Notes: generated from the sequence alone by a model not told the origin. Shown: positions 1,718-23,978, numbered from the stretch's first letter. The stretch is 64,000 nt of DNA from Porphyridium purpureum (GCA_008690995.1 VRMN01000003.1:62001-126000), one strand, 5' to 3'. Made by a program: numbers and translations.

Positions 1718-2920
1718 CTATTTGCTTGAAGTGTCTTCCCGCTCCAGCAACTCGATCGTGTCGATTTGGACGAAAAAGCTCGAGTAGTGCTCAGGCCGCA
1801 AAAGCACAAGACCTTCGGCGGGTGAGAGTGGAGATGGGAATGCCAGGCGCGCGTGAATAAGCGTTTGTGAGCTGACCACAGCGATCAGTCCCAGGAAGTA
1901 ACAAGTTAGTGAGAAGCGGTCTGACGCACGGTACTCACCGCAAAATATGCCTCCGCAGATCGATACATACGCTATCCACGAGCCCTGCGAACGGCTTACC
2001 ACTAGCCGCGCGTCGTACTTCTCAAGCGCGTTCGCAATGGACATGAGCCTGTAAGCGAAAGACGCCACAATGCCAATCAAAATGGACCCAATCAGAATCA
2101 ACTCATTCAAGCTGACGGCGTAATTGCGCGACTGCGGATCCAGCGAAAATAGATACAGCATGTCCGTGATAGAAACCTTGATGAGAATGTCAGACTGACA
2201 CGTCCAGTACGCGGTGCTGACAAAATAGAGTAGCACCAAGAGTTCCTGGGACGCTGGACCCAAGTCCGAGCTCGCCTTGTAATTTTGATACGCAATGTAG
2301 CACAGCACGCTGAACGAGCTCAAAAATAGCTGTGTGCACACAAAGACAGGTTCGCCAACGATGGCCGGCATTTGCGCAGACCGGATGAATGTCACTTGTC
2401 GAGGACCAAAAACCAAAACCACGACCATCCCCAGGAAGTACACGGCAATGTAGTTGGAAAGCGAGCCGATGGAAAGCCGGAAACCTGTGACCCTGGAAAA
2501 GAGCCTGTTTGTAAACACTTGAAGAATTGTCTGAAGGCTCATGAGCGAGCCACAGACGCCGAGCGGCAGTAAGAAGAGCAGCACCGTGCGGAGCAAAACG
2601 GCAATGATAAACAAAACAGCGCCCCAATTCCCGAGTGACAAAACTGGCTCGTCATTGTAGATGTTTGCGGTGACTGCAGATTCCATGCTTGTTTGCGTGC
2701 GTTGTTGTTGTTGCGGTTGTGGTGGTTGTTGTTGCTGCTGCTGCTGCAGATGATGATCGCTGCGCTCAGCGCGCGCCCCATGTTCCCTCATCGCTTGGTA
2801 CTGCAATGCCGTGCATGCGCCAGCTCCGCACAGTGATGCCAGCAGCCCCAGCGGTACACCCACGAGCCATGCCGTACCGTGGGGCTCTGCTTGCCCGGCA
2901 ACGACGTCGGCAAGCCACAT
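1718..2920 (-). CDS. NIPA-like (DMT superfamily) multi-pass membrane protein, putative Mg2+ transporter
   Basis: About 9 hydrophobic segments; VLVFGP and ALEKYDARLVV...ICGGIFCGEY resemble NIPA motifs; polyQ in the N-terminal loop. First ATG is at 2920. Confidence 0.6.
   Translation of the reverse strand: MWLADVVAGQAEPHGTAWLVGVPLGLLASLCGAGACTALQYQAMREHGARAERSDHHLQQQQQQQPPQPQQQQRTQTSMESAVTANIYNDEPVLSLGNWGAVLFIIAVLLRTVLLFLLPLGVCGSLMSLQTILQVFTNRLFSRVTGFRLSIGSLSNYIAVYFLGMVVVLVFGPRQVTFIRSAQMPAIVGEPVFVCTQLFLSSFSVLCYIAYQNYKASSDLGPASQELLVLLYFVSTAYWTCQSDILIKVSITDMLYLFSLDPQSRNYAVSLNELILIGSILIGIVASFAYRLMSIANALEKYDARLVVSRSQGSWIAYVSICGGIFCGEYRASDRFSLTCYFLGLIAVVSSQTLIHARLAFPSPLSPAEGLVLLRPEHYSSFFVQIDTIELLEREDTSSK
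2701..2748. repeat. (CAG)n/(CAA)n trinucleotide microsatellite encoding polyQ
   Basis: gttgttgttgttg...gttgttgttgctgctgctgctg on the + strand. Confidence 0.85.
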
Positions 2921-3092
2921 GGTCCCGACTGCACGCACCACGCACCATCTCCGCGCAAACGCCGAGGCCAGCCGCACGGTTGACTGAGTACAGCGATGTA
3001 CCCCTTTCGTGCGGATGGGTACAGTTTTCCGTGCGCCTCTCAAACGGGCAGGGGTACAGTTTGCAAATCTCTAGTAGAATCGACTGGATTTC

Positions 3093-3889
3093 CGTGGAAT
3101 TTTAGGGTTCCGCCCCGAGAGACGCCGTAGGGTTTTGAGTACAAAACCCTAGAAAGTTCTATGATGAAAGATTGTTCGAGAAGCGTGATGATCTCGGACC
3201 TGCGAAATGTTTGTCATTGTCGTTTTGTGTGGCCTTGTGCAAAGGTCAAAGGCCGGCCGAAGCTTCTGGATTCGTTCTTGACGCGCCCTCCCGGCCATTT
3301 TCCGGATACGTGGCCGGCTGTGGTTGCGAGTTGTGGAACGAATCAAAACCTGTGGTGGAAATTCGTCCTGTTGGAGAAATTTGTTCTCCCGTCCTTGCTG
3401 GAAAGAGCAAGGACGAAGGGTATAAAAGGACGAAGGGGCAAGCTGGTTCCCAGGAATTTCCAGGTCAAGGTAGAAGAAGAGGTAAGGGCAAATAGAATAA
3501 AAAGAGAATTGGTTAGTTGGATTGAGGCAGTCGTTGGAAGACTTGGGTTGGATTTGCGGGAGAGGCACGCTAGCGTGTTGTGCGAGCGGATATCGGTCTG
3601 GAGTGTTTTTAAAAAGGCAGCTGGGGTTTAAACGTACCTTCCATCACCCTTCACTTGTCAAGACCGGTCCACTCCCTCTCGTAGTCCCCTATAAGTTGAA
3701 TTTTCTGTCCTCTCTTCCTTTCTAGCCACTTTTCTCTGATTGTCCTGCTTGTCCTTCCGTTCGTTTCGGTGTGTCGGTTCGTCGTCGGTTTGTCAGTTTC
3801 CGGGGTGTGGCGGTTTCCAGTTCCTGTTATCGGTGAAGCGGTCCGGTTTTGTTGATTCGGTTACAAAGCAGAAAGGGAGAAATTCCAAG
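3093..3889 (+). repeat. 5' LTR (CGTGGAATTT...AAATTCCAAG)
   Basis: Matches 8057-8853 at offset 4964; by eye I see one mismatch (T3150 vs C8114). Confidence 0.97.
3421..3427 (+). promoter_or_regulatory. Putative LTR TATA box TATAAAA (copy at 8385-8391); AATAAA at 3496-3501
   Basis: GGG-TATAAAA-GG in the middle of the LTR, the usual U3 position. Confidence 0.55.
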
Positions 3890-3907
3890 TGGTATCATCG
3901 CCCGGTT
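3890..3907 (+). other. Primer binding site complementary to the 3' end of initiator tRNA-Met
   Basis: TGGTATCATCGCCCGGTT directly abuts the 5' LTR. Its reverse complement AACCGGG-CGATGAT-A-CCA has the layout of a tRNA T-arm/acceptor 3' end and parallels the plant iMet PBS TGGTATCAGAGC. Confidence 0.85.
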
Positions 3908-3918
3908 GTTTGGAGAAA

Positions 3919-4866
3919 ATGGAAAGCCATGAAATGGAAATGAATGTCCCGCAGGAGAATGCGGCATGGATTGAGGCAGCTAATCAGCTGCATGCGCGCA
4001 TTGCGGGACAGGAGATGATGATGGCACAAGTGCAGGAAGCGAATCGTAACCTCCATGAAATGATGCATGTTTTGTTGCGCCAGCAGACCGTGGCGTCTGG
4101 GTCTGGTGACAACGATCGTGCCATGGCCGCGTTAATTGGGCGCAGTTTGAGAAAGTTTGATGGTCAGCGTGACAAGCTCGTTGTCAATGAATGGCTGATG
4201 CGAATGAAGAGCGACCTGGATATCTGCATGCCCGCAGATGCTTTGGACTCGCAGAAAGTGATTGTTGCAAGTCGCTTTTTCGAGAGGGACGCAGCGCTGC
4301 TTTGGGCAGCTCGTCCGGAGGAGCAGAGAAAGGGCCTTGCAGAGGCCGGATGGGATGCGTTCGCAAACTTCGTGCGCACAGCGTTTGAGCCGCCGCAGGC
4401 GCATTTGACAGCGCGCACCAATCTGTATCAGTTGAAGCAAGGGAAAATGACGGTCGCAGAATTTGAGCAGAATCTCAGGATGACAGCGTTATCAGTTGAA
4501 GATGTGACAGATGCAGAACTGAACACCATCTTCACGCTGGGCTTGAAGGAGAAACTGCGTATTGAGGTGGCCCGTCAGGACACAAGGACCTTGGAAGAAT
4601 CACTGAAAGTTGCGTTGGCAGCTGAGCAGGTTGCAAAGTTCGGAGGAGATATGAGTCAAGTGATCAAGAACTCGTCATCGACTCATAGCAGGGCGTTCTC
4701 GTCGCATTCTGGTAGCGCACCAATGGATTTGGGAGCCATGGACAAGCGGAAGTCTGGCAAGACCAAAGTGAAGTGTTACCATTGTGGAGAACGTGGACAC
4801 ATTAAGCCCAAATGCCCTAAATTGAAGGAGCGCTTGGCAGGTGGTCCGCCAGAGCCGGAAAACTAA
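3919..4866 (+). CDS. gag: Retrotransposon Gag (capsid-like domain plus CCHC zinc knuckle)
   Basis: KFDG...WL...A..W...W..F...F; LYQLKQGKMTVAEF; FTLGLKEKLR; APMDLG; CYHCGERGHIKPKC. Confidence 0.93.
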   Translation: MESHEMEMNVPQENAAWIEAANQLHARIAGQEMMMAQVQEANRNLHEMMHVLLRQQTVASGSGDNDRAMAALIGRSLRKFDGQRDKLVVNEWLMRMKSDLDICMPADALDSQKVIVASRFFERDAALLWAARPEEQRKGLAEAGWDAFANFVRTAFEPPQAHLTARTNLYQLKQGKMTVAEFEQNLRMTALSVEDVTDAELNTIFTLGLKEKLRIEVARQDTRTLEESLKVALAAEQVAKFGGDMSQVIKNSSSTHSRAFSSHSGSAPMDLGAMDKRKSGKTKVKCYHCGERGHIKPKCPKLKERLAGGPPEPEN

Positions 4867-4918
4867 GACCTCGAGAGCCAAGACAGGAGGAGATCTCGAG
4901 GGGAATGGAGCCTCCTGT
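4857..4918 (+). promoter_or_regulatory. -1 programmed ribosomal frameshift signal: slippery G_GAA_AAC plus H-type pseudoknot
   Basis: Heptamer at 4857-4863 just before the gag TAA; 5-nt spacer; stem 1 CCTCGAGA (4869-76)/TCTCGAGG (4894-4901); stem 2 ACAGGAGG (4883-90)/CCTCCTGT (4911-18). The -1 frame is open into pol. Confidence 0.8.
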
Positions 4919-7900
4919 AATGGGTGTTGTGGAAGGTGTTGCGCACGAGGGTGCGAGGTCAAGGCTCTTCTACAAACATGGGAAAGTGAGTGGTTCAAAA
5001 ATCGACTTCTTGATTGACAGTGGAGCGTCGCATAATTTCCTGGGGTCCCGATTCTTGGACGCAAGCGTAAAGTCCAGTTGCGATGAATGCATGGTCGAGC
5101 TTGCGGGAGGACAGAGAATGAAGGTGCACGGCCCCATTGTGCTTGCGGTGGACCTCGGTTTCTGGATAGGGAACGTCGAGTTTTATATCGGTCCCATTCG
5201 TATGGATGCCATCTTAGGGTGGAAATGGCTCAAGATGGTGAATCCTAAGATTGATTGGCAGAAGGGACTGATGGAAACGAGGCCCGAGGGGAAGGAAATA
5301 TGCACGTTGGAAAATGTTGAAGAAGTGGTTCCCGAGCTTGACGGGAAAAATCAGAGCGTGGCTGCTTCGGAACACGAGTTGACTCACATGCCTATGCAAA
5401 GAGACTGTGAGACGTGTGTCGTGGCGAAGATAAAGCGACGCCCGGCCCGAAGGCTGGAGAAAGATGTCAGTGCATTGTCATTCAATGATGAAGTCGGAAT
5501 TGACTTGGTGGAGCCTGGGCGAAATGTGAAGTCGGTAGATGGTTCAAAGTTTATTTTGACGCATATCGACAGAGCCACAGGATGGGTGACATTGGCGGGG
5601 CTACGTGCGAAAACCCACACGGCGGTTGCGGACGCTTGGAAAAGTGTGCAAGCCGGGAGAGGATGGCCGAAGGTTTTGCGAACGGATGATGGGAATGAGT
5701 TCAAGGGAGATGTGGGGAGACTGGTGCGTGAACACCTCATAAAGCACGAGGTGGGGATTCCGTACAGGCCAAACAGTCATGCTGAACAGGAGCGGTTTCA
5801 CCACACGCTGAATCAGGGAATCCGTGCGAATCTTGTGCAGGCCGGACTCGGGAAGCGTTGGTTCATGCACGCCGCGCAGCATTTTGCGTTCATGACGAAT
5901 AGACTTCACGTGGGCAGGAAGTCTGGAAAGACGCCGTTTGAATTACGACATGGTGAAAAATGGTCGCCGAGAAATCTTAGTTTGCCATTCGGGTGCAAGG
6001 TGGTCTACAAAGATGATCAGCCTGACAATAAGTATGCACCGCGAGGAAAAGTTGGCATTCTCGTCGGCGTTGGAGAGCATCCGATGGCAATTTTGGTGCT
6101 TCCTCGGGATGACTGGACGAGTGAGACCCCAAAAGTAATTCGCACTCAGGATTTTAAGGCATTTACCCATGAGTTCCCTTTAAAGGGAATTGAACGAGAG
6201 ATGGTGAGCCTGAGCCAGCAGGAAGAGTTGCCAGAAGTGGACGAACCATCCGCGGTTGAAGCGGTGCAGGACTTGGATCGTCGTATCGATGCTCTCAGAG
6301 CTAGAGAAGCGGAGCTTGAGAAAGAGATCGAGGCATTGAAAGTGAGAGTGGTTGACGAAGAACGGGCAGCAGGCACGGGTGGTCCAGTGACGATCCCACA
6401 GTTGAACTTAACGACTTTGCTGAAAACTGGAGCGGCGTTGGCGTCTGAGCAAGGACGAGCCGCGATGGAAAAAGAAGTCAAATCCATGCTGAAATTTGGG
6501 GTATGGGATGAGAGTCCCTTGACGCTGGAGGAGGCCCGGAGGCAACCTGGTGCTCGTTTCGTACGCACACATTTCATTTTCGGTCTGAAATTTGCTGAGA
6601 TGCCGGAAGAATTTCGCAAGGTGAAGTGCCGCTTGGTGGCCGGGGGAAACAGGATATGGGGGTCCGATGGAGCTGCGACGAATGACATTTTTGATTATGA
6701 GACGCCTGCTGGTTTGTCAGCTATCCGAATGATAATAGCTGTGGCTGCAATTCTGGGCCTTCAGATTGTTAGTTTCGACATCAGCTCGGCATACCTCCAT
6801 GCGGACCTGTCTGGGCCACCTACGTTTGCATATTTACCGCGTGAAATTTGTGATTCAAAAGACACAGTAGTCAGGCTGAGAAAGGCGCTGTATGGCTTGC
6901 CCAGGAGCGGCTCGGATTTCTCACAAGATGCTCGGAGGAGATTGCAAAAGTTCCAGTGGAAGCTCGTGCATGGTGAAAAGAATGTGTACGTCCGGAGAAA
7001 TGCTGCAAGTTCGTCAGTTGCGTTGTTGGCTCTGTACGTGGATGATGGTCTATTAGCCTGTCGAGAGGAGGAACGCCCAGGAATCATCGAAGAATTGAAA
7101 CAAGAGTTTCTCATAGAAAAAGCACCAGAACTATTGACGGAAGGAGGATCCTTGAGATTCCTGGGGACGAGCATTTCCCTCAAAAATGGGAGCGTGAGTT
7201 TGGCGAATCAAGAGTATCAAGATGTGGTCATTCGGGAATTTGAGCAGGATATTAGACGCGTATTGCGTGCCGTGAAGTCACCATCTGAGAAGCTAGATGG
7301 CGAGGAAGTTCTGAATTATCAAGTCATCTGGAAGACTTTGAAAGTAAGAGAACACGTCGGGAGGCTGATGTGGCTCGCCAGAACGGTTCGACCTGATATT
7401 GCGTATGCAGTCGGTATGATTGCCCGGTACGTTGACAAGTGGAATGTGGCAGCAGAAAGGCTGCTCGTACGAGTCGTGCAGTATTTGAAAACACCTCGGG
7501 AAGCATTGGAGTATCACGTGTTGGGGAATCTCAAGGAAGGCATCAGAATGGTGAACATTCTTGGATACACGGATGCTGACTTTGCTGGTTGTCCAGAGAG
7601 TCGTGTGTCGACTTCTGGAAGAGCAACGTACTTAGTTGCTGGAGATTACAAGTACCTAGTGGATTGGTCTTCAAGAAAGCAGCGTTTCGTGAGCTCGTCG
7701 ACTTCAGAGTCGGAGCTGGCCGCCCTAGAGGAAACTGTGCAACTCTCGTTGTTTCCTGCATTGTCTTTCTTGCGAAGTATACGTGACGGAGAGTTCTCGG
7801 TGATTTTGATGTGTGACAATCAAGCTGTGATGCGAGCAATAGAGATGGGGTACTCGCCAAAGTTGCATCATATGGCGATAACCCGAGCAACAGATTTGGC

Positions 7901-8069
7901 CTGGTTGCATCAGGTGTGCGAAAAGCAGAAACTTGTGAAACTGGCATTTGTGAAGACGGACGAAAATGTGGCGGACTTAATGACCAAGGCCTTATTTCCG
8001 GAGGGCCACATTAAGTGCTGGGAGAAGTTACGCGTCCCTCAGACCGGAAGGAGGAGCGTGGAATTTTAG
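4905..8069 (+). CDS. pol: Retrotransposon Pol: protease - integrase - reverse transcriptase - RNase H (copia order); frame open from the slip site at about 4857
   Basis: PR FLIDSGASHNF...ILGWKWL..VNPKIDW; IN HELTH..CETC, IDLVE, RTDDGNEF, QERFHHTL, PFGC...RGKVGILVG; RT KCRLVAGG, FDISSAYLHADL, LRKALYGL, LYVDD; RH YTDADFAG, STSESEL, CDNQA, ENVADLMTKAL. Confidence 0.96.
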   Translation: MEPPVMGVVEGVAHEGARSRLFYKHGKVSGSKIDFLIDSGASHNFLGSRFLDASVKSSCDECMVELAGGQRMKVHGPIVLAVDLGFWIGNVEFYIGPIRMDAILGWKWLKMVNPKIDWQKGLMETRPEGKEICTLENVEEVVPELDGKNQSVAASEHELTHMPMQRDCETCVVAKIKRRPARRLEKDVSALSFNDEVGIDLVEPGRNVKSVDGSKFILTHIDRATGWVTLAGLRAKTHTAVADAWKSVQAGRGWPKVLRTDDGNEFKGDVGRLVREHLIKHEVGIPYRPNSHAEQERFHHTLNQGIRANLVQAGLGKRWFMHAAQHFAFMTNRLHVGRKSGKTPFELRHGEKWSPRNLSLPFGCKVVYKDDQPDNKYAPRGKVGILVGVGEHPMAILVLPRDDWTSETPKVIRTQDFKAFTHEFPLKGIEREMVSLSQQEELPEVDEPSAVEAVQDLDRRIDALRAREAELEKEIEALKVRVVDEERAAGTGGPVTIPQLNLTTLLKTGAALASEQGRAAMEKEVKSMLKFGVWDESPLTLEEARRQPGARFVRTHFIFGLKFAEMPEEFRKVKCRLVAGGNRIWGSDGAATNDIFDYETPAGLSAIRMIIAVAAILGLQIVSFDISSAYLHADLSGPPTFAYLPREICDSKDTVVRLRKALYGLPRSGSDFSQDARRRLQKFQWKLVHGEKNVYVRRNAASSSVALLALYVDDGLLACREEERPGIIEELKQEFLIEKAPELLTEGGSLRFLGTSISLKNGSVSLANQEYQDVVIREFEQDIRRVLRAVKSPSEKLDGEEVLNYQVIWKTLKVREHVGRLMWLARTVRPDIAYAVGMIARYVDKWNVAAERLLVRVVQYLKTPREALEYHVLGNLKEGIRMVNILGYTDADFAGCPESRVSTSGRATYLVAGDYKYLVDWSSRKQRFVSSSTSESELAALEETVQLSLFPALSFLRSIRDGEFSVILMCDNQAVMRAIEMGYSPKLHHMAITRATDLAWLHQVCEKQKLVKLAFVKTDENVADLMTKALFPEGHIKCWEKLRVPQTGRRSVEF
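8046..8056 (+). other. Polypurine tract
   Basis: GGAAGGAGGAG directly abuts the 3' LTR start (C8057) and lies inside the pol coding frame. Confidence 0.85.
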
Positions 8070-8853
8070 GGTTCCGCCCCGAGAGACGCCGTAGGGTTTT
8101 GAGTACAAAACCCCAGAAAGTTCTATGATGAAAGATTGTTCGAGAAGCGTGATGATCTCGGACCTGCGAAATGTTTGTCATTGTCGTTTTGTGTGGCCTT
8201 GTGCAAAGGTCAAAGGCCGGCCGAAGCTTCTGGATTCGTTCTTGACGCGCCCTCCCGGCCATTTTCCGGATACGTGGCCGGCTGTGGTTGCGAGTTGTGG
8301 AACGAATCAAAACCTGTGGTGGAAATTCGTCCTGTTGGAGAAATTTGTTCTCCCGTCCTTGCTGGAAAGAGCAAGGACGAAGGGTATAAAAGGACGAAGG
8401 GGCAAGCTGGTTCCCAGGAATTTCCAGGTCAAGGTAGAAGAAGAGGTAAGGGCAAATAGAATAAAAAGAGAATTGGTTAGTTGGATTGAGGCAGTCGTTG
8501 GAAGACTTGGGTTGGATTTGCGGGAGAGGCACGCTAGCGTGTTGTGCGAGCGGATATCGGTCTGGAGTGTTTTTAAAAAGGCAGCTGGGGTTTAAACGTA
8601 CCTTCCATCACCCTTCACTTGTCAAGACCGGTCCACTCCCTCTCGTAGTCCCCTATAAGTTGAATTTTCTGTCCTCTCTTCCTTTCTAGCCACTTTTCTC
8701 TGATTGTCCTGCTTGTCCTTCCGTTCGTTTCGGTGTGTCGGTTCGTCGTCGGTTTGTCAGTTTCCGGGGTGTGGCGGTTTCCAGTTCCTGTTATCGGTGA
8801 AGCGGTCCGGTTTTGTTGATTCGGTTACAAAGCAGAAAGGGAGAAATTCCAAG
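8057..8853 (+). repeat. 3' LTR
   Basis: Near-identical copy of 3093-3889, followed by the TSD ATTTC. Confidence 0.97.
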
Positions 8854-9032
8854 ATTTCGTAGGAGGCGCGCGGGGTTTGCGGTTCCGTCATGGAATGAGA
8901 ATTTGGCGGGCGTGCTGAGCTCGAGCAGGCTAAAGAGAGCCACGAGACAACCCACGCCACTGCCGTTGATGCTTGCCGCGCGCGGAACAAGCTAGGAAAC
9001 AGACCGGCATGATCGCGGCCGGACATCGGAGA

Positions 9033-9827
9033 ATGGGATTTGTGGGCGCCTGCGGTCCGCGCATGGGCGCGCGCCATGGCACACGGAAGAACGCTCTGGA
9101 TCGCAGCCCGCCGTGGCGACTGATGTCTGCTGGCGGCTCTAGGACAAGGCGACCGGAATGGCAATCTCTGCGCATGCGCGCTAGGGACGGTGGCGTTGAT
9201 GAGAAGGAATTGGGCAAGATGAGCCTGGGGCTGGGAATTCTCACTCTCGCGGTCGATTTTGCGAACCGGCTTGGCGTGCTCAATTCTGTTGAAGGCGTAC
9301 AAAGCCGGAGCGATCTCGTCGGGGTGATATGCGGCGTCACCATGATTCTGTACGGCCTGGCAACTCGTGATGTGAATGTCAGGGCAGAGCAGCAAGTTGA
9401 GCTGGATGGCCAATTTGTTGACGAAAAAGGTGCGGACGTTGTCAGTGAAAGCGCTCTCCAAAAGCTGCGCGGCGCCGCGCGCTCTGTGTGCGATGCCACG
9501 ACGGTGCGAAGCGTGATTGTCCTGAAAGCGGGGCAGGTGCTGTATCGATATGGTGTCATGGGTCAGGCTGCCACAGTCGACACCGACGCAGAAATCATCA
9601 AGCAAGCGCTGAGTAAGCCATCGCGCACGTACTTTGCCCGCGTGGAGATCTTGCCCGCGAAAGAGCAGCTCAACTTTTTGCCAAACAATGTCCAGGCAGT
9701 TCTTTTCGAGCCCCTTCCAGAAAATGGGCTCCTTATCCTGGGCGCGAGCAAGGTCCGTCCATTTACCCCTGAAGACTTTGGATGGATTCGAGCCTTGTCA
9801 AACCTGATTGCATCTCTTGAGCTTTGA
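9033..9827 (+). CDS. CCB4: Cytochrome b6f heme ci assembly factor of the CCB2/CCB4 family (CCB4-like), plastid-targeted
   Basis: ANRL...QSRSDLVGV...ILYGL and FLPNNVQAVLFEPL..NGLLILG...RPFT.EDFGWI; start MGFVGA resembles a transit peptide. Confidence 0.8.
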   Translation: MGFVGACGPRMGARHGTRKNALDRSPPWRLMSAGGSRTRRPEWQSLRMRARDGGVDEKELGKMSLGLGILTLAVDFANRLGVLNSVEGVQSRSDLVGVICGVTMILYGLATRDVNVRAEQQVELDGQFVDEKGADVVSESALQKLRGAARSVCDATTVRSVIVLKAGQVLYRYGVMGQAATVDTDAEIIKQALSKPSRTYFARVEILPAKEQLNFLPNNVQAVLFEPLPENGLLILGASKVRPFTPEDFGWIRALSNLIASLEL

Positions 9828-22364: not shown

Positions 22365-23978
22365 TCACATGTCTACGGGCACCTCTCCAAGCCGCTCATA
22401 CCATTGTCTAACAGCGTCCCTCCAATTCTCCTTCGTCAAGCGCAAAGAGCGGGCGCGATCTTTCAGATCCACGGCCGTCCGCGTGGAGCGGAACTGATTC
22501 CGGTACTGGTTCAGCATCTGCGCCCACTTTCCATACGCAAGGTTAGGGTCCTCCAGCCCCCGATACAGAGCCTTGTATATGGCATCATCTTCCTCTGGTT
22601 GCCATGGCGTGCGCTTTCGACGCACCGTCGTTGGAGTCCGGCTCGCTGGATCTGCTTCGCCTTCTCCGCTCTCGACTCCGTCAACATCCGCGGGATGAGA
22701 TACAGCCGCCTTCTTCTTTCTCGGAGGCTTTTTCGCAGACGCTTCGGCGTCACCGTCCACACCAGACTCCGCGGCTATGCGTGCTGCTAGCTGAGCTGCA
22801 GCACGCTTTCCGCGCGCGCGAGGCTTTTCGGACTGAATCATGGTCTTCTGCTGCTGCATGGCAACTAAACTGTGATGCAGTTTGTTCGCATTCTCGACCG
22901 CGGCCTCAGCCGTACTCTGCACAACATTCACAGCATGTACGGCCTGCGGGCCGACCGGGTCCAGCGTCTCGACCGGCGGGTCTTCCGGAAACGTCACGCT
23001 GACTCGAACAAGCGCCATAAACACCCGCGACAATGCGCGAAGCTTGCCAATCGCCTCGTAGCACTGCGACAGCAGCGCGGGACTTGACGTGTCACGCACA
23101 TCACCATCTTCGGAGACCGCTGCGCGCAGCGGATTCTTGCTTTTCCATTGAAGCACGTGCCTGCGCAGCTCTTCGTCCTGCTTTGCAGCAGCGAGGACCG
23201 CGTCATGGATGAAGTTAAGCGTCGGTAATTCAAGAAACTCTTGCGGCTGATACATTGAGTCAATGGCGTCGCGCAACACCTTTGCTGGTGCTATGGACTT
23301 TCGAAGTTTCTTGTTATCTTCCACCTTGGCCTCGGTCTGTGCAAGCAGGTACCAGATGCACAGCTTGTTTAGCAGAAGCGGCACGTTTGCCCGCACCTCG
23401 GACTGCATAATGTCCAGGGAATGGAGCTGCTTGCGTGGCAGGGCGTCCAGCAGCGCTCGGAGGTTGTACAGTGTGCCCTGCATGTCGAGCATGAGGCCAG
23501 ACAGCAGCTCCACGAGGGACACATCCTGTCCCTCCAGGAGCACCGGCCCCGCAGCCGGCGGGTCCCGCGGCGCATTCAACAGCTTGGCACGCGTCATATT
23601 CAGGGTCATGTGCGCCGAGCAGGCGCATGCCATCATGAGAATGGCGTCCATGACCGCTCCGAGCGCGGCCTGCTTGACGTCGCCCACGTGCTGCTCTCCG
23701 TCCGGAAACAAGCGCTCCACTGCTTGTGCGACAGCCACCTTCATCGCGCCGACCGCCGCGACGTCGCGCTTTGCGGCGTCCGCCACGGCTACCGGCGCGG
23801 CCTTTGCGCCGCCGCGCGCCGCGCCCGCCTTGGGCATGGCGTTGCTGATCATCTCGCGCTCCTCATCGTAAATTGCCCAGTCGCCGCTCACGCTCTTCGC
23901 CACCCATTCCTTCACCGCGTCATCCTGGAACAACTTCAGCACCTTTACCCACACCTCGTCTGCATGCTCCTTGACCAT
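22365..23978 (-). CDS. Telomere-repeat-binding-like protein with a C-terminal telobox-type Myb domain (TRF/Tbf1-like)
   Basis: RRKRTPWQPEED...YGKWAQML...F..RTAVDLKDRARSL, with an upstream basic NLS-like stretch KKPPRKKK. Confidence 0.7.
   Translation of the reverse strand: MVKEHADEVWVKVLKLFQDDAVKEWVAKSVSGDWAIYDEEREMISNAMPKAGAARGGAKAAPVAVADAAKRDVAAVGAMKVAVAQAVERLFPDGEQHVGDVKQAALGAVMDAILMMACACSAHMTLNMTRAKLLNAPRDPPAAGPVLLEGQDVSLVELLSGLMLDMQGTLYNLRALLDALPRKQLHSLDIMQSEVRANVPLLLNKLCIWYLLAQTEAKVEDNKKLRKSIAPAKVLRDAIDSMYQPQEFLELPTLNFIHDAVLAAAKQDEELRRHVLQWKSKNPLRAAVSEDGDVRDTSSPALLSQCYEAIGKLRALSRVFMALVRVSVTFPEDPPVETLDPVGPQAVHAVNVVQSTAEAAVENANKLHHSLVAMQQQKTMIQSEKPRARGKRAAAQLAARIAAESGVDGDAEASAKKPPRKKKAAVSHPADVDGVESGEGEADPASRTPTTVRRKRTPWQPEEDDAIYKALYRGLEDPNLAYGKWAQMLNQYRNQFRSTRTAVDLKDRARSLRLTKENWRDAVRQWYERLGEVPVDM

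Follow-up and report, generated by a model that had tools for sequence, protein, structure and literature searches.

A Porphyridium purpureum LTR retrotransposon with Ty3/gypsy-type Gag and protease ahead of a Ty1/copia-type integrase, reverse transcriptase and RNase H

The split between copia and gypsy is the main axis along which LTR retroelements are classified, and the classification assumes that the modules of an element travel together. The stretch of Porphyridium purpureum DNA analysed here (the window: the 64,000 nucleotides of VRMN01000003.1:62001-126000) holds, at 3093-8853, an element whose Gag and protease (PR) resemble those of one superfamily and whose integrase (IN), reverse transcriptase (RT) and RNase H (RH) resemble those of the other, raising the question of whether such a build is real and, if so, how and when it arose.

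Structure of an intact, recently inserted element

The element is an intact, recently inserted LTR retrotransposon of P. purpureum, as a preliminary description of this DNA had proposed. Its two 797-nt LTRs (5', 3093..3889; 3', 8057..8853; all element features lie on the + strand) differ at one position, its frames are intact, and it is flanked by the target-site duplication ATTTC (3088..3092 and 8854..8858), of which run X10 shows one copy only, at the empty site, in a contig that joins 3086 to 8853. The 5' LTR starts CG-TGGAATTT and finishes AAATTCCA-AG, and other insertions have their flank breakpoints at these bases too. Directly adjoining it is an 18-nt primer-binding site (PBS; TGGTATCA..., 3890..3907), which we take, by its resemblance to the plant iMet PBS, to be that for initiator tRNA-Met; a polypurine tract (PPT; 8046..8056) directly adjoins the 3' LTR. 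LTRs, PBS, PPT and a 5-bp target duplication are thus all present, as in Ty1/copia elements. The proteins of the element are 99-100% identical to P. purpureum gene models named at NCBI.

The gag frame (3919..4866) encodes 315 aa, with an N-terminal helix, a Ty3/Arc-type capsid (~4144-4641), APMDLG and one CCHC knuckle (4774-4815). It is overlapped by the pol frame (4821..8069), which is -1 relative to gag and runs for 1082 codons, stop to stop, with its stop codon inside the 3' LTR. This single frame has the order PR-IN-RT-RH that the preliminary description had read, and the catalytic residues of all four enzymes are intact. The aspartic protease (4953..5300), of gypsy type, has DSGA at 5016 and an ILG motif, and is followed by a linker (5301..5372) that holds the inferred module boundary. 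The integrase (5373..6188), of a divergent copia clade, has a short HX3HX6CX2C finger beginning at 5373, the residues D228-D289-E324 and an SH3-like tail; a predicted coiled-coil linker (6186..6353) separates it from a copia-type RT (6462..7535; YVDD at 7035) and an RH (7563..8012) with the copia-type motifs YTDAD (7566), SESE, CDNQ and ADLMTK. The motifs listed in the preliminary description were all found in place: KFDG, LKQGKMTVAEF, FTLGLKEKLR, APMDLG and the CCHC knuckle in Gag; FLIDSGASHNF (D66, window 5016) and DAILGWKWL in PR; PFGC...GILVG in the IN tail; and FDISS (6774), YVDD and the RH motifs YTDAD, CDNQ and ADLMTK.

The element is inserted between a divergent pair of host genes, one (1718-3070, - strand) encoding a membrane protein with no Pfam match and the other (8970-9827, + strand) a CCB2/CCB4 gene. 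Elsewhere in the window, a Myb-like stretch (22419-22622, - strand) resembles the Myb insert of a related retrotransposon family (family B, below) at 37% identity, and no other retroelement match was seen beside it.

Affinities of the two halves

By sequence comparison, the element consists of a Ty3/gypsy-type Gag and PR ahead of a Ty1/copia-type IN, RT and RH. At least five P. purpureum families carry a gypsy Gag-PR on this backbone: A (the window element), B, D, E and F, hereafter the hybrids, with RT-RH identities to A of 71% for B and 33-35% for D, E and F.

In Pfam, Gag matched Retrotrans_gag (4.6e-9), Ty3_capsid (1.3e-8) and zf-CCHC, and no copia gag model of the Retrotran_gag_2 / UBN2 kind that marks Ty1/copia Gags. 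Its best PDB sequence match is dArc1 (E 7e-4), and its nearest Atlas clusters are Retrotrans_gag/Ty3_capsid. It scored 77.8 bits on a profile of seven gypsy Gags versus 4.7 on one of 21 canonical copia Gags, and in profile-profile comparison six hybrid Gags matched the seven gypsy Gags at Prob 99.5 (E 3.5e-23), versus Prob 16 for the 21 canonical copia Gags and 0.4 for ten Gags from environmental members of the element's RT-RH clade, used as outgroups. Those ten matched canonical copia at Prob 94 and gypsy at 4. The Pfam and profile results bear out the proposed gypsy-like Gag, with a best capsid identity to any gypsy reference of only 18-26%. The AlphaFold model of Gag is poor (pLDDT 53), and its top fold match, the Ty3 capsid, is not significant (E 0.13).

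The PR motif is ILG and not LLS; in the available text of PMC2774666, LLS is the motif of copia proteases and ILG is non-copia. Pfam returned Asp_protease_2 (1.8e-5), gag-asp_proteas (2.7e-5) and RVP_2 (0.05) for PR, with no match to Pol_BBD, and the best PDB match is ASPRV1. The score of PR was 53 bits on a profile of four gypsy PRs and 15 on one of 24 copia PRs; the hybrid PRs together matched gypsy at Prob 99.3 with a score of 114, versus 40 for canonical copia and 30 for the outgroups. In a 54-row tree, five hybrid and three true gypsy PRs were joined at 100/97, and a fourth gypsy PR, P0037, fell outside that group on a long branch. The PRs of 15 environmental clade members are of the LLS type and matched canonical copia at Prob 98 and gypsy at 51. 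Among 243 proteins, the hybrid PR profile matched only the Porphyridium families and four gypsy polyproteins, the next best match scoring 10 bits, and a search with the Gag-PR region of family B found, besides itself, only four RVT_1 gypsy polyproteins outside Porphyridium. The best PR identity to gypsy references is only 23-32%. As to the chromovirus-like affinity suggested in the preliminary description, the nearest PR, in a placement without tree support, is that of the chromodomain-bearing element P0081; the Pfam scan found no chromodomain in the window element. All these comparisons used at most 11 gypsy references, mostly found by similarity to these same Gag and PR sequences and so biased toward a gypsy match, and for two of them (P0041, P0042) Pfam is the sole ground for the gypsy label. 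The motif, the profiles and the tree together agree with the gypsy-like PR of the preliminary description, and the profile tests and PR tree do not group Gag and PR with the copia clade of RT and RH.

RT matched RVT_2 (2e-19) and not RVT_1 in the Pfam scan; RH matched no RNase H model in that scan and is assigned to the copia type by its motifs; IN gave only a weak SH3_retrovirus match (0.0024). IN falls in a 35-row clade on the copia side of four gypsy INs (SH-aLRT 99, in a short alignment of 192 columns), and its PDB matches, to retroviral, foamy and Ty3 integrases, are weak and uninformative. RT-RH has no significant PDB sequence match. When 1.84 billion representatives were searched, the best 150 matches all covered IN/RT/RH, and those scanned with Pfam are RVT_2 elements; no element of the mixed build from another genome was among the 150. 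In trees built without a gypsy outgroup and without named or curated GyDB/REXdb references, the RT-RH clade stands apart from canonical copia with a support of 98 in one tree and 100/100 in another; the hybrids are nested among environmental relatives within the 100/100 clade, and support for the Porphyridium clade within the RT-RH tree is only 85/95. The RVT_2 match and the IN and RT-RH clades sustain the copia-type reading of the second half.

The divergent copia clade matched no named lineage among those that could be tested. Some of its environmental members (P0100, P0113, P0115, P0116) carry extra domains: C-terminal AAA_28, CCCH fingers and zf-CW. Two metagenome proteins, P0076 and P0009, have a permuted pol in one frame, with protease, the C-terminal part of RT with RNase H, integrase and the N-terminal part of RT in that order, which is either a real rearrangement or an assembly artefact.

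Expression, LTR ends and integration

The gag frame ends G GAA AAC TAA, the heptamer G GAA AAC (4857-4863) being followed, 5 nt downstream, by a hairpin (4869-4901; -14.1 kcal/mol, z -2.1, with 7 of 200 shuffles as good). The Gags of families A and B and of P0040 all end in EN, and family D has a single frame in its gene model. A -1 frameshift at this predicted signal (4857..4901) is the likely route to Gag-Pol; initiation of pol at ATG 4908, or splicing, are alternatives. In the life cycle that we propose, Gag would assemble a Ty3/Arc-type particle, the frameshift would yield Gag-Pol, the gypsy-type protease would cut it, and initiator tRNA-Met and the polypurine tract would serve as primers for RT. 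Contigs of the RNA run X19 cover the element, although contigs cannot show transcription.

The LTRs end in CG...AG, not in the 5'-TG...CA-3' of Ty1/copia elements; TG and CA lie 2 nt inside, and the inverted repeat is C-N-TGGAATTT. Neither these ends nor the frame offset of gag and pol had been recorded in the preliminary description. In the window, the ATTTC duplication lies outside CG...AG. Among the junctions listed, a count that left out rows at internal positions, some of them from family B, all 14 right-junction rows (nine of them single-contig, the window included) keep AG and all six left junctions keep CG. Two further matched 5-bp duplications, GACCC (X10) and AAAAG (X1), make three with ATTTC; the left and right flanks from X11/X17 do not pair, and may belong to different insertions. 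On the window alone, a duplication of 6 bp (GATTTC) together with an LTR that ends in CCAA would fit; it was rejected since other insertions keep the final G.

The cDNA ends are set by the PBS and the PPT, and since each of these adjoins its inserted LTR, the integrase likely joins unprocessed ends, with no dinucleotide removed. The integrases of gypsy elements and retroviruses trim two bases. According to the available part of PMC2939329, that of Ty1 joins blunt cDNA, and TG...CA termini are generally assumed to be necessary; other ends are known as such, CT...AA being given for GyRex2 in the excerpts available. Like that of Ty1, the integrase of the element would join blunt cDNA, but the base joined would be a 3'-G lying two bases past CA.

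The word GTAC starts 15-20 nt past the 3' LTR in four of nine single-contig flanks (6/14 rows when mixed ones are included) and in none of six left flanks, against a background of 2.1%; it was counted by eye, over a span chosen after seeing the data, in flanks from X1, X2, X5, X10, X11, X17 and X19.

Probable history of the proposed exchange and relation to known elements

Three further P. purpureum families, C, G and H (P0071, P0239, P0242), belong to the RT-RH clade of the hybrids (33-38% identity) and have instead a canonical copia front end, with a Retrotran_gag_2 Gag, a Pol_BBD protease and a canonical integrase. Their integrases form one group (96) amid canonical copia and their RT-RH sits with the hybrids, a discordance in the sequences that we read as a second module swap on the same backbone. 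At the place between IN and RT where family A has its coiled coil, families B, C and D have a Myb-like domain, which occurs in P0005, P0071, P0082, P0085 and P0102, from families with different front ends; F, E, P0007 and P0083 have a Cys-rich finger there.

Most probably, a member of the divergent Ty1/copia clade captured a Gag-PR module from a Ty3/gypsy element long ago; the most plausible route for the swap would be a template switch between RNAs that were co-packaged or chimeric. Since the hybrids are nested among relatives with copia-type Gag and PR, it is probably the gypsy module that is derived. The contrasting affinities of Gag/PR and IN/RT/RH support the inter-superfamily recombinant that the preliminary description had proposed, with the correction that the cross is not fresh: the element is recently mobile, but its build is common to families only 33-35% identical in RT-RH, from which we infer that the recombination is old. 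For the same reason the break, which had been put at ~5270-5370, cannot be located more closely than to the interval from the C-terminus of PR (~5300) to the zinc finger of IN (5373). Neither GC3 nor GC skew changes abruptly at the junction (gag 0.59, PR 0.63, IN 0.55, RT 0.52, RH 0.54), as expected for an old event. No donor gypsy family was identified among the at most 11 references, at the identities given above. A metagenome scan with the hybrid alignment gave nine loci, all distant copia (23-31% identity) and none with gypsy Gag/PR by profiles, and four scans of viral contigs gave no matches.

Could the element instead be an isolated recombinant of recent date, or could the 5' half of a gypsy element and the 3' half of a copia element have been wrongly joined in assembly? 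Mis-joins or nested copies do occur in family A, whose scrambled gene model P0003 is a double copy with two tandem IN-RT-RH halves after a Gag start. However, run X5 has a 4991-nt contig that spans 3863-8853 at four differences, contigs of X1 (4719-5714) and X10 (4719-5378) also cross PR-IN, a 4960-nt record from run X2 has its end in the 3' LTR, and the peptide from PR to IN, linker included, is identical in all 14 family-A Pol gene models tested, on six scaffolds (the models come from a 16-member cluster of which 15 are listed, one a short fragment). With five diverged families having the same build as well, a one-off or artefactual origin is extremely improbable, and the possibility of a misassembly raised beforehand falls away. 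A reading without any swap is also unlikely, if less so; on it, the divergent copia clade would have had the gypsy-like Gag and PR as an old state, through retention or convergence, and the change would have taken place in the environmental relatives. It has in its favour that the Gag and PR of the five hybrid families are as distant from one another (19-28% identity) as from true gypsy, so that the module must be very old, and that, in the available text of PMC5718144, the capsids of both superfamilies are thought to be homologous; but the hybrid RT-RH is nested in relatives whose Gags (10) and PRs (15) match canonical copia, retention would require many parallel losses, and families C, G and H independently show module swapping on this backbone.

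Whether gypsy Gag-PR was captured once in the lineage of this alga or at least twice (A/B versus D/E/F) is a matter of variants of the capture that we favour and not a denial of it, and within it the odds are about even; taken over all readings, two or more captures are a real possibility, short of an even chance. The PRs of A and B group with true gypsy PRs (91/84), apart from those of D, E and F (96/76), and the hybrids form one group in none of 200 bootstrap trees, either for PR or for capsid plus PR. Yet the AU test does not reject a single clade (capsid plus PR, p 0.20; RT-RH, p 0.15), and the gypsy references were chosen by likeness to family B.

How does this element compare with those already described? 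With canonical Ty1/copia elements (Pseudoviridae; for example the Tnt1/copia-like P0121 and P0125) it shares the PR-IN-RT-RH order, an RVT_2 RT with copia RNase H motifs, an IN of copia descent with an SH3-like tail, the 5-bp duplication, the tRNA PBS and the PPT; it differs in its gypsy-type Gag and PR, an RT-RH of only 24-28% identity that falls in a separate clade, the short IN zinc finger, the CG...AG ends and the predicted -1 frameshift. With Ty3/gypsy elements (Metaviridae; compared were the oomycete P0078/P0079, Logan P0080, the chromodomain-bearing P0081 and the Ty3 and dArc capsids) it shares the capsid family, the PMD motif before a single CCHC and the ILG-type protease, but it lacks RVT_1, RT_RNaseH, Integrase_H2C2 and a chromodomain, and its IN lies upstream of RT instead of after RH. 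PyRE10G, from the red-algal copia group, reportedly has a 'gypsy-like integrase'. The GalEa, PyRE10G and CoPorcru elements of red algae, Porphyridium included, have a Met-tRNA PBS and a 5-bp duplication in common with ours, whereas GalEa has the PBS TGGTAGCAGAGC, a DTG(C/A) protease, an HX4HX30CX2C finger, TG...CA ends and usually one ORF, none of which our element has; it is set apart from GalEa and PyRE10G by the available parts of their descriptions (PMC3587641, PMC5445492, PMC2806351), the trees holding no GalEa sequence. Gmr1-like gypsy elements likewise have a gypsy Gag and PR with IN upstream of RT, but in the accessible text (PMC2774666, PMC3587641) Gmr1 keeps a gypsy RT and IN in rearranged order, whereas the IN, RT and RH of our element are copia by descent and its RT is RVT_2. 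Families C, G and H, in the same host and RT-RH clade, differ in their canonical copia Gag, PR and IN.

In the full-text literature, with subscription papers and GyDB/Repbase/REXdb outside its scope, we found no report of a copia element with gypsy Gag-PR or of this Porphyridium lineage, and thus no paper that catalogues the build as an ordinary lineage; the available text on the P. purpureum Nanopore hybrid assembly (PMC6811547) goes no further than an LTR expansion of recent date and automatically derived totals for Copia and Gypsy. By its RT the element files under Ty1/copia, yet its Gag, protease and termini are not of that kind, and judged on these sequence characters it is a new hybrid variant. 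More speculatively, the divergent Porphyridium copia clade may be a hub of module exchange across superfamilies, in which a single RT-RH backbone works with three Gag-PR(-IN) front ends, the gypsy one included. The CG...AG ends might then be a scar of the cross, left when a copia integrase that does not trim encountered cDNA ends of gypsy style, longer by two bases; integration would take place at a 3'-G where CA is near-universal, perhaps with a fixed spacing to GTAC as a promoter word. We hold this extension only tentatively.

An active lineage of several families that combines a gypsy particle with copia enzymes would mean that the structural and enzymatic halves of LTR retroelements can be exchanged across the split, and that the product can be long-lasting. 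Annotation based on RT only, or on TG...CA ends, misses or mislabels such elements. Since the host is small and culturable and has strain-level insertion polymorphism, particle assembly, protease specificity, frameshifting and non-CA integration are directly testable in it.
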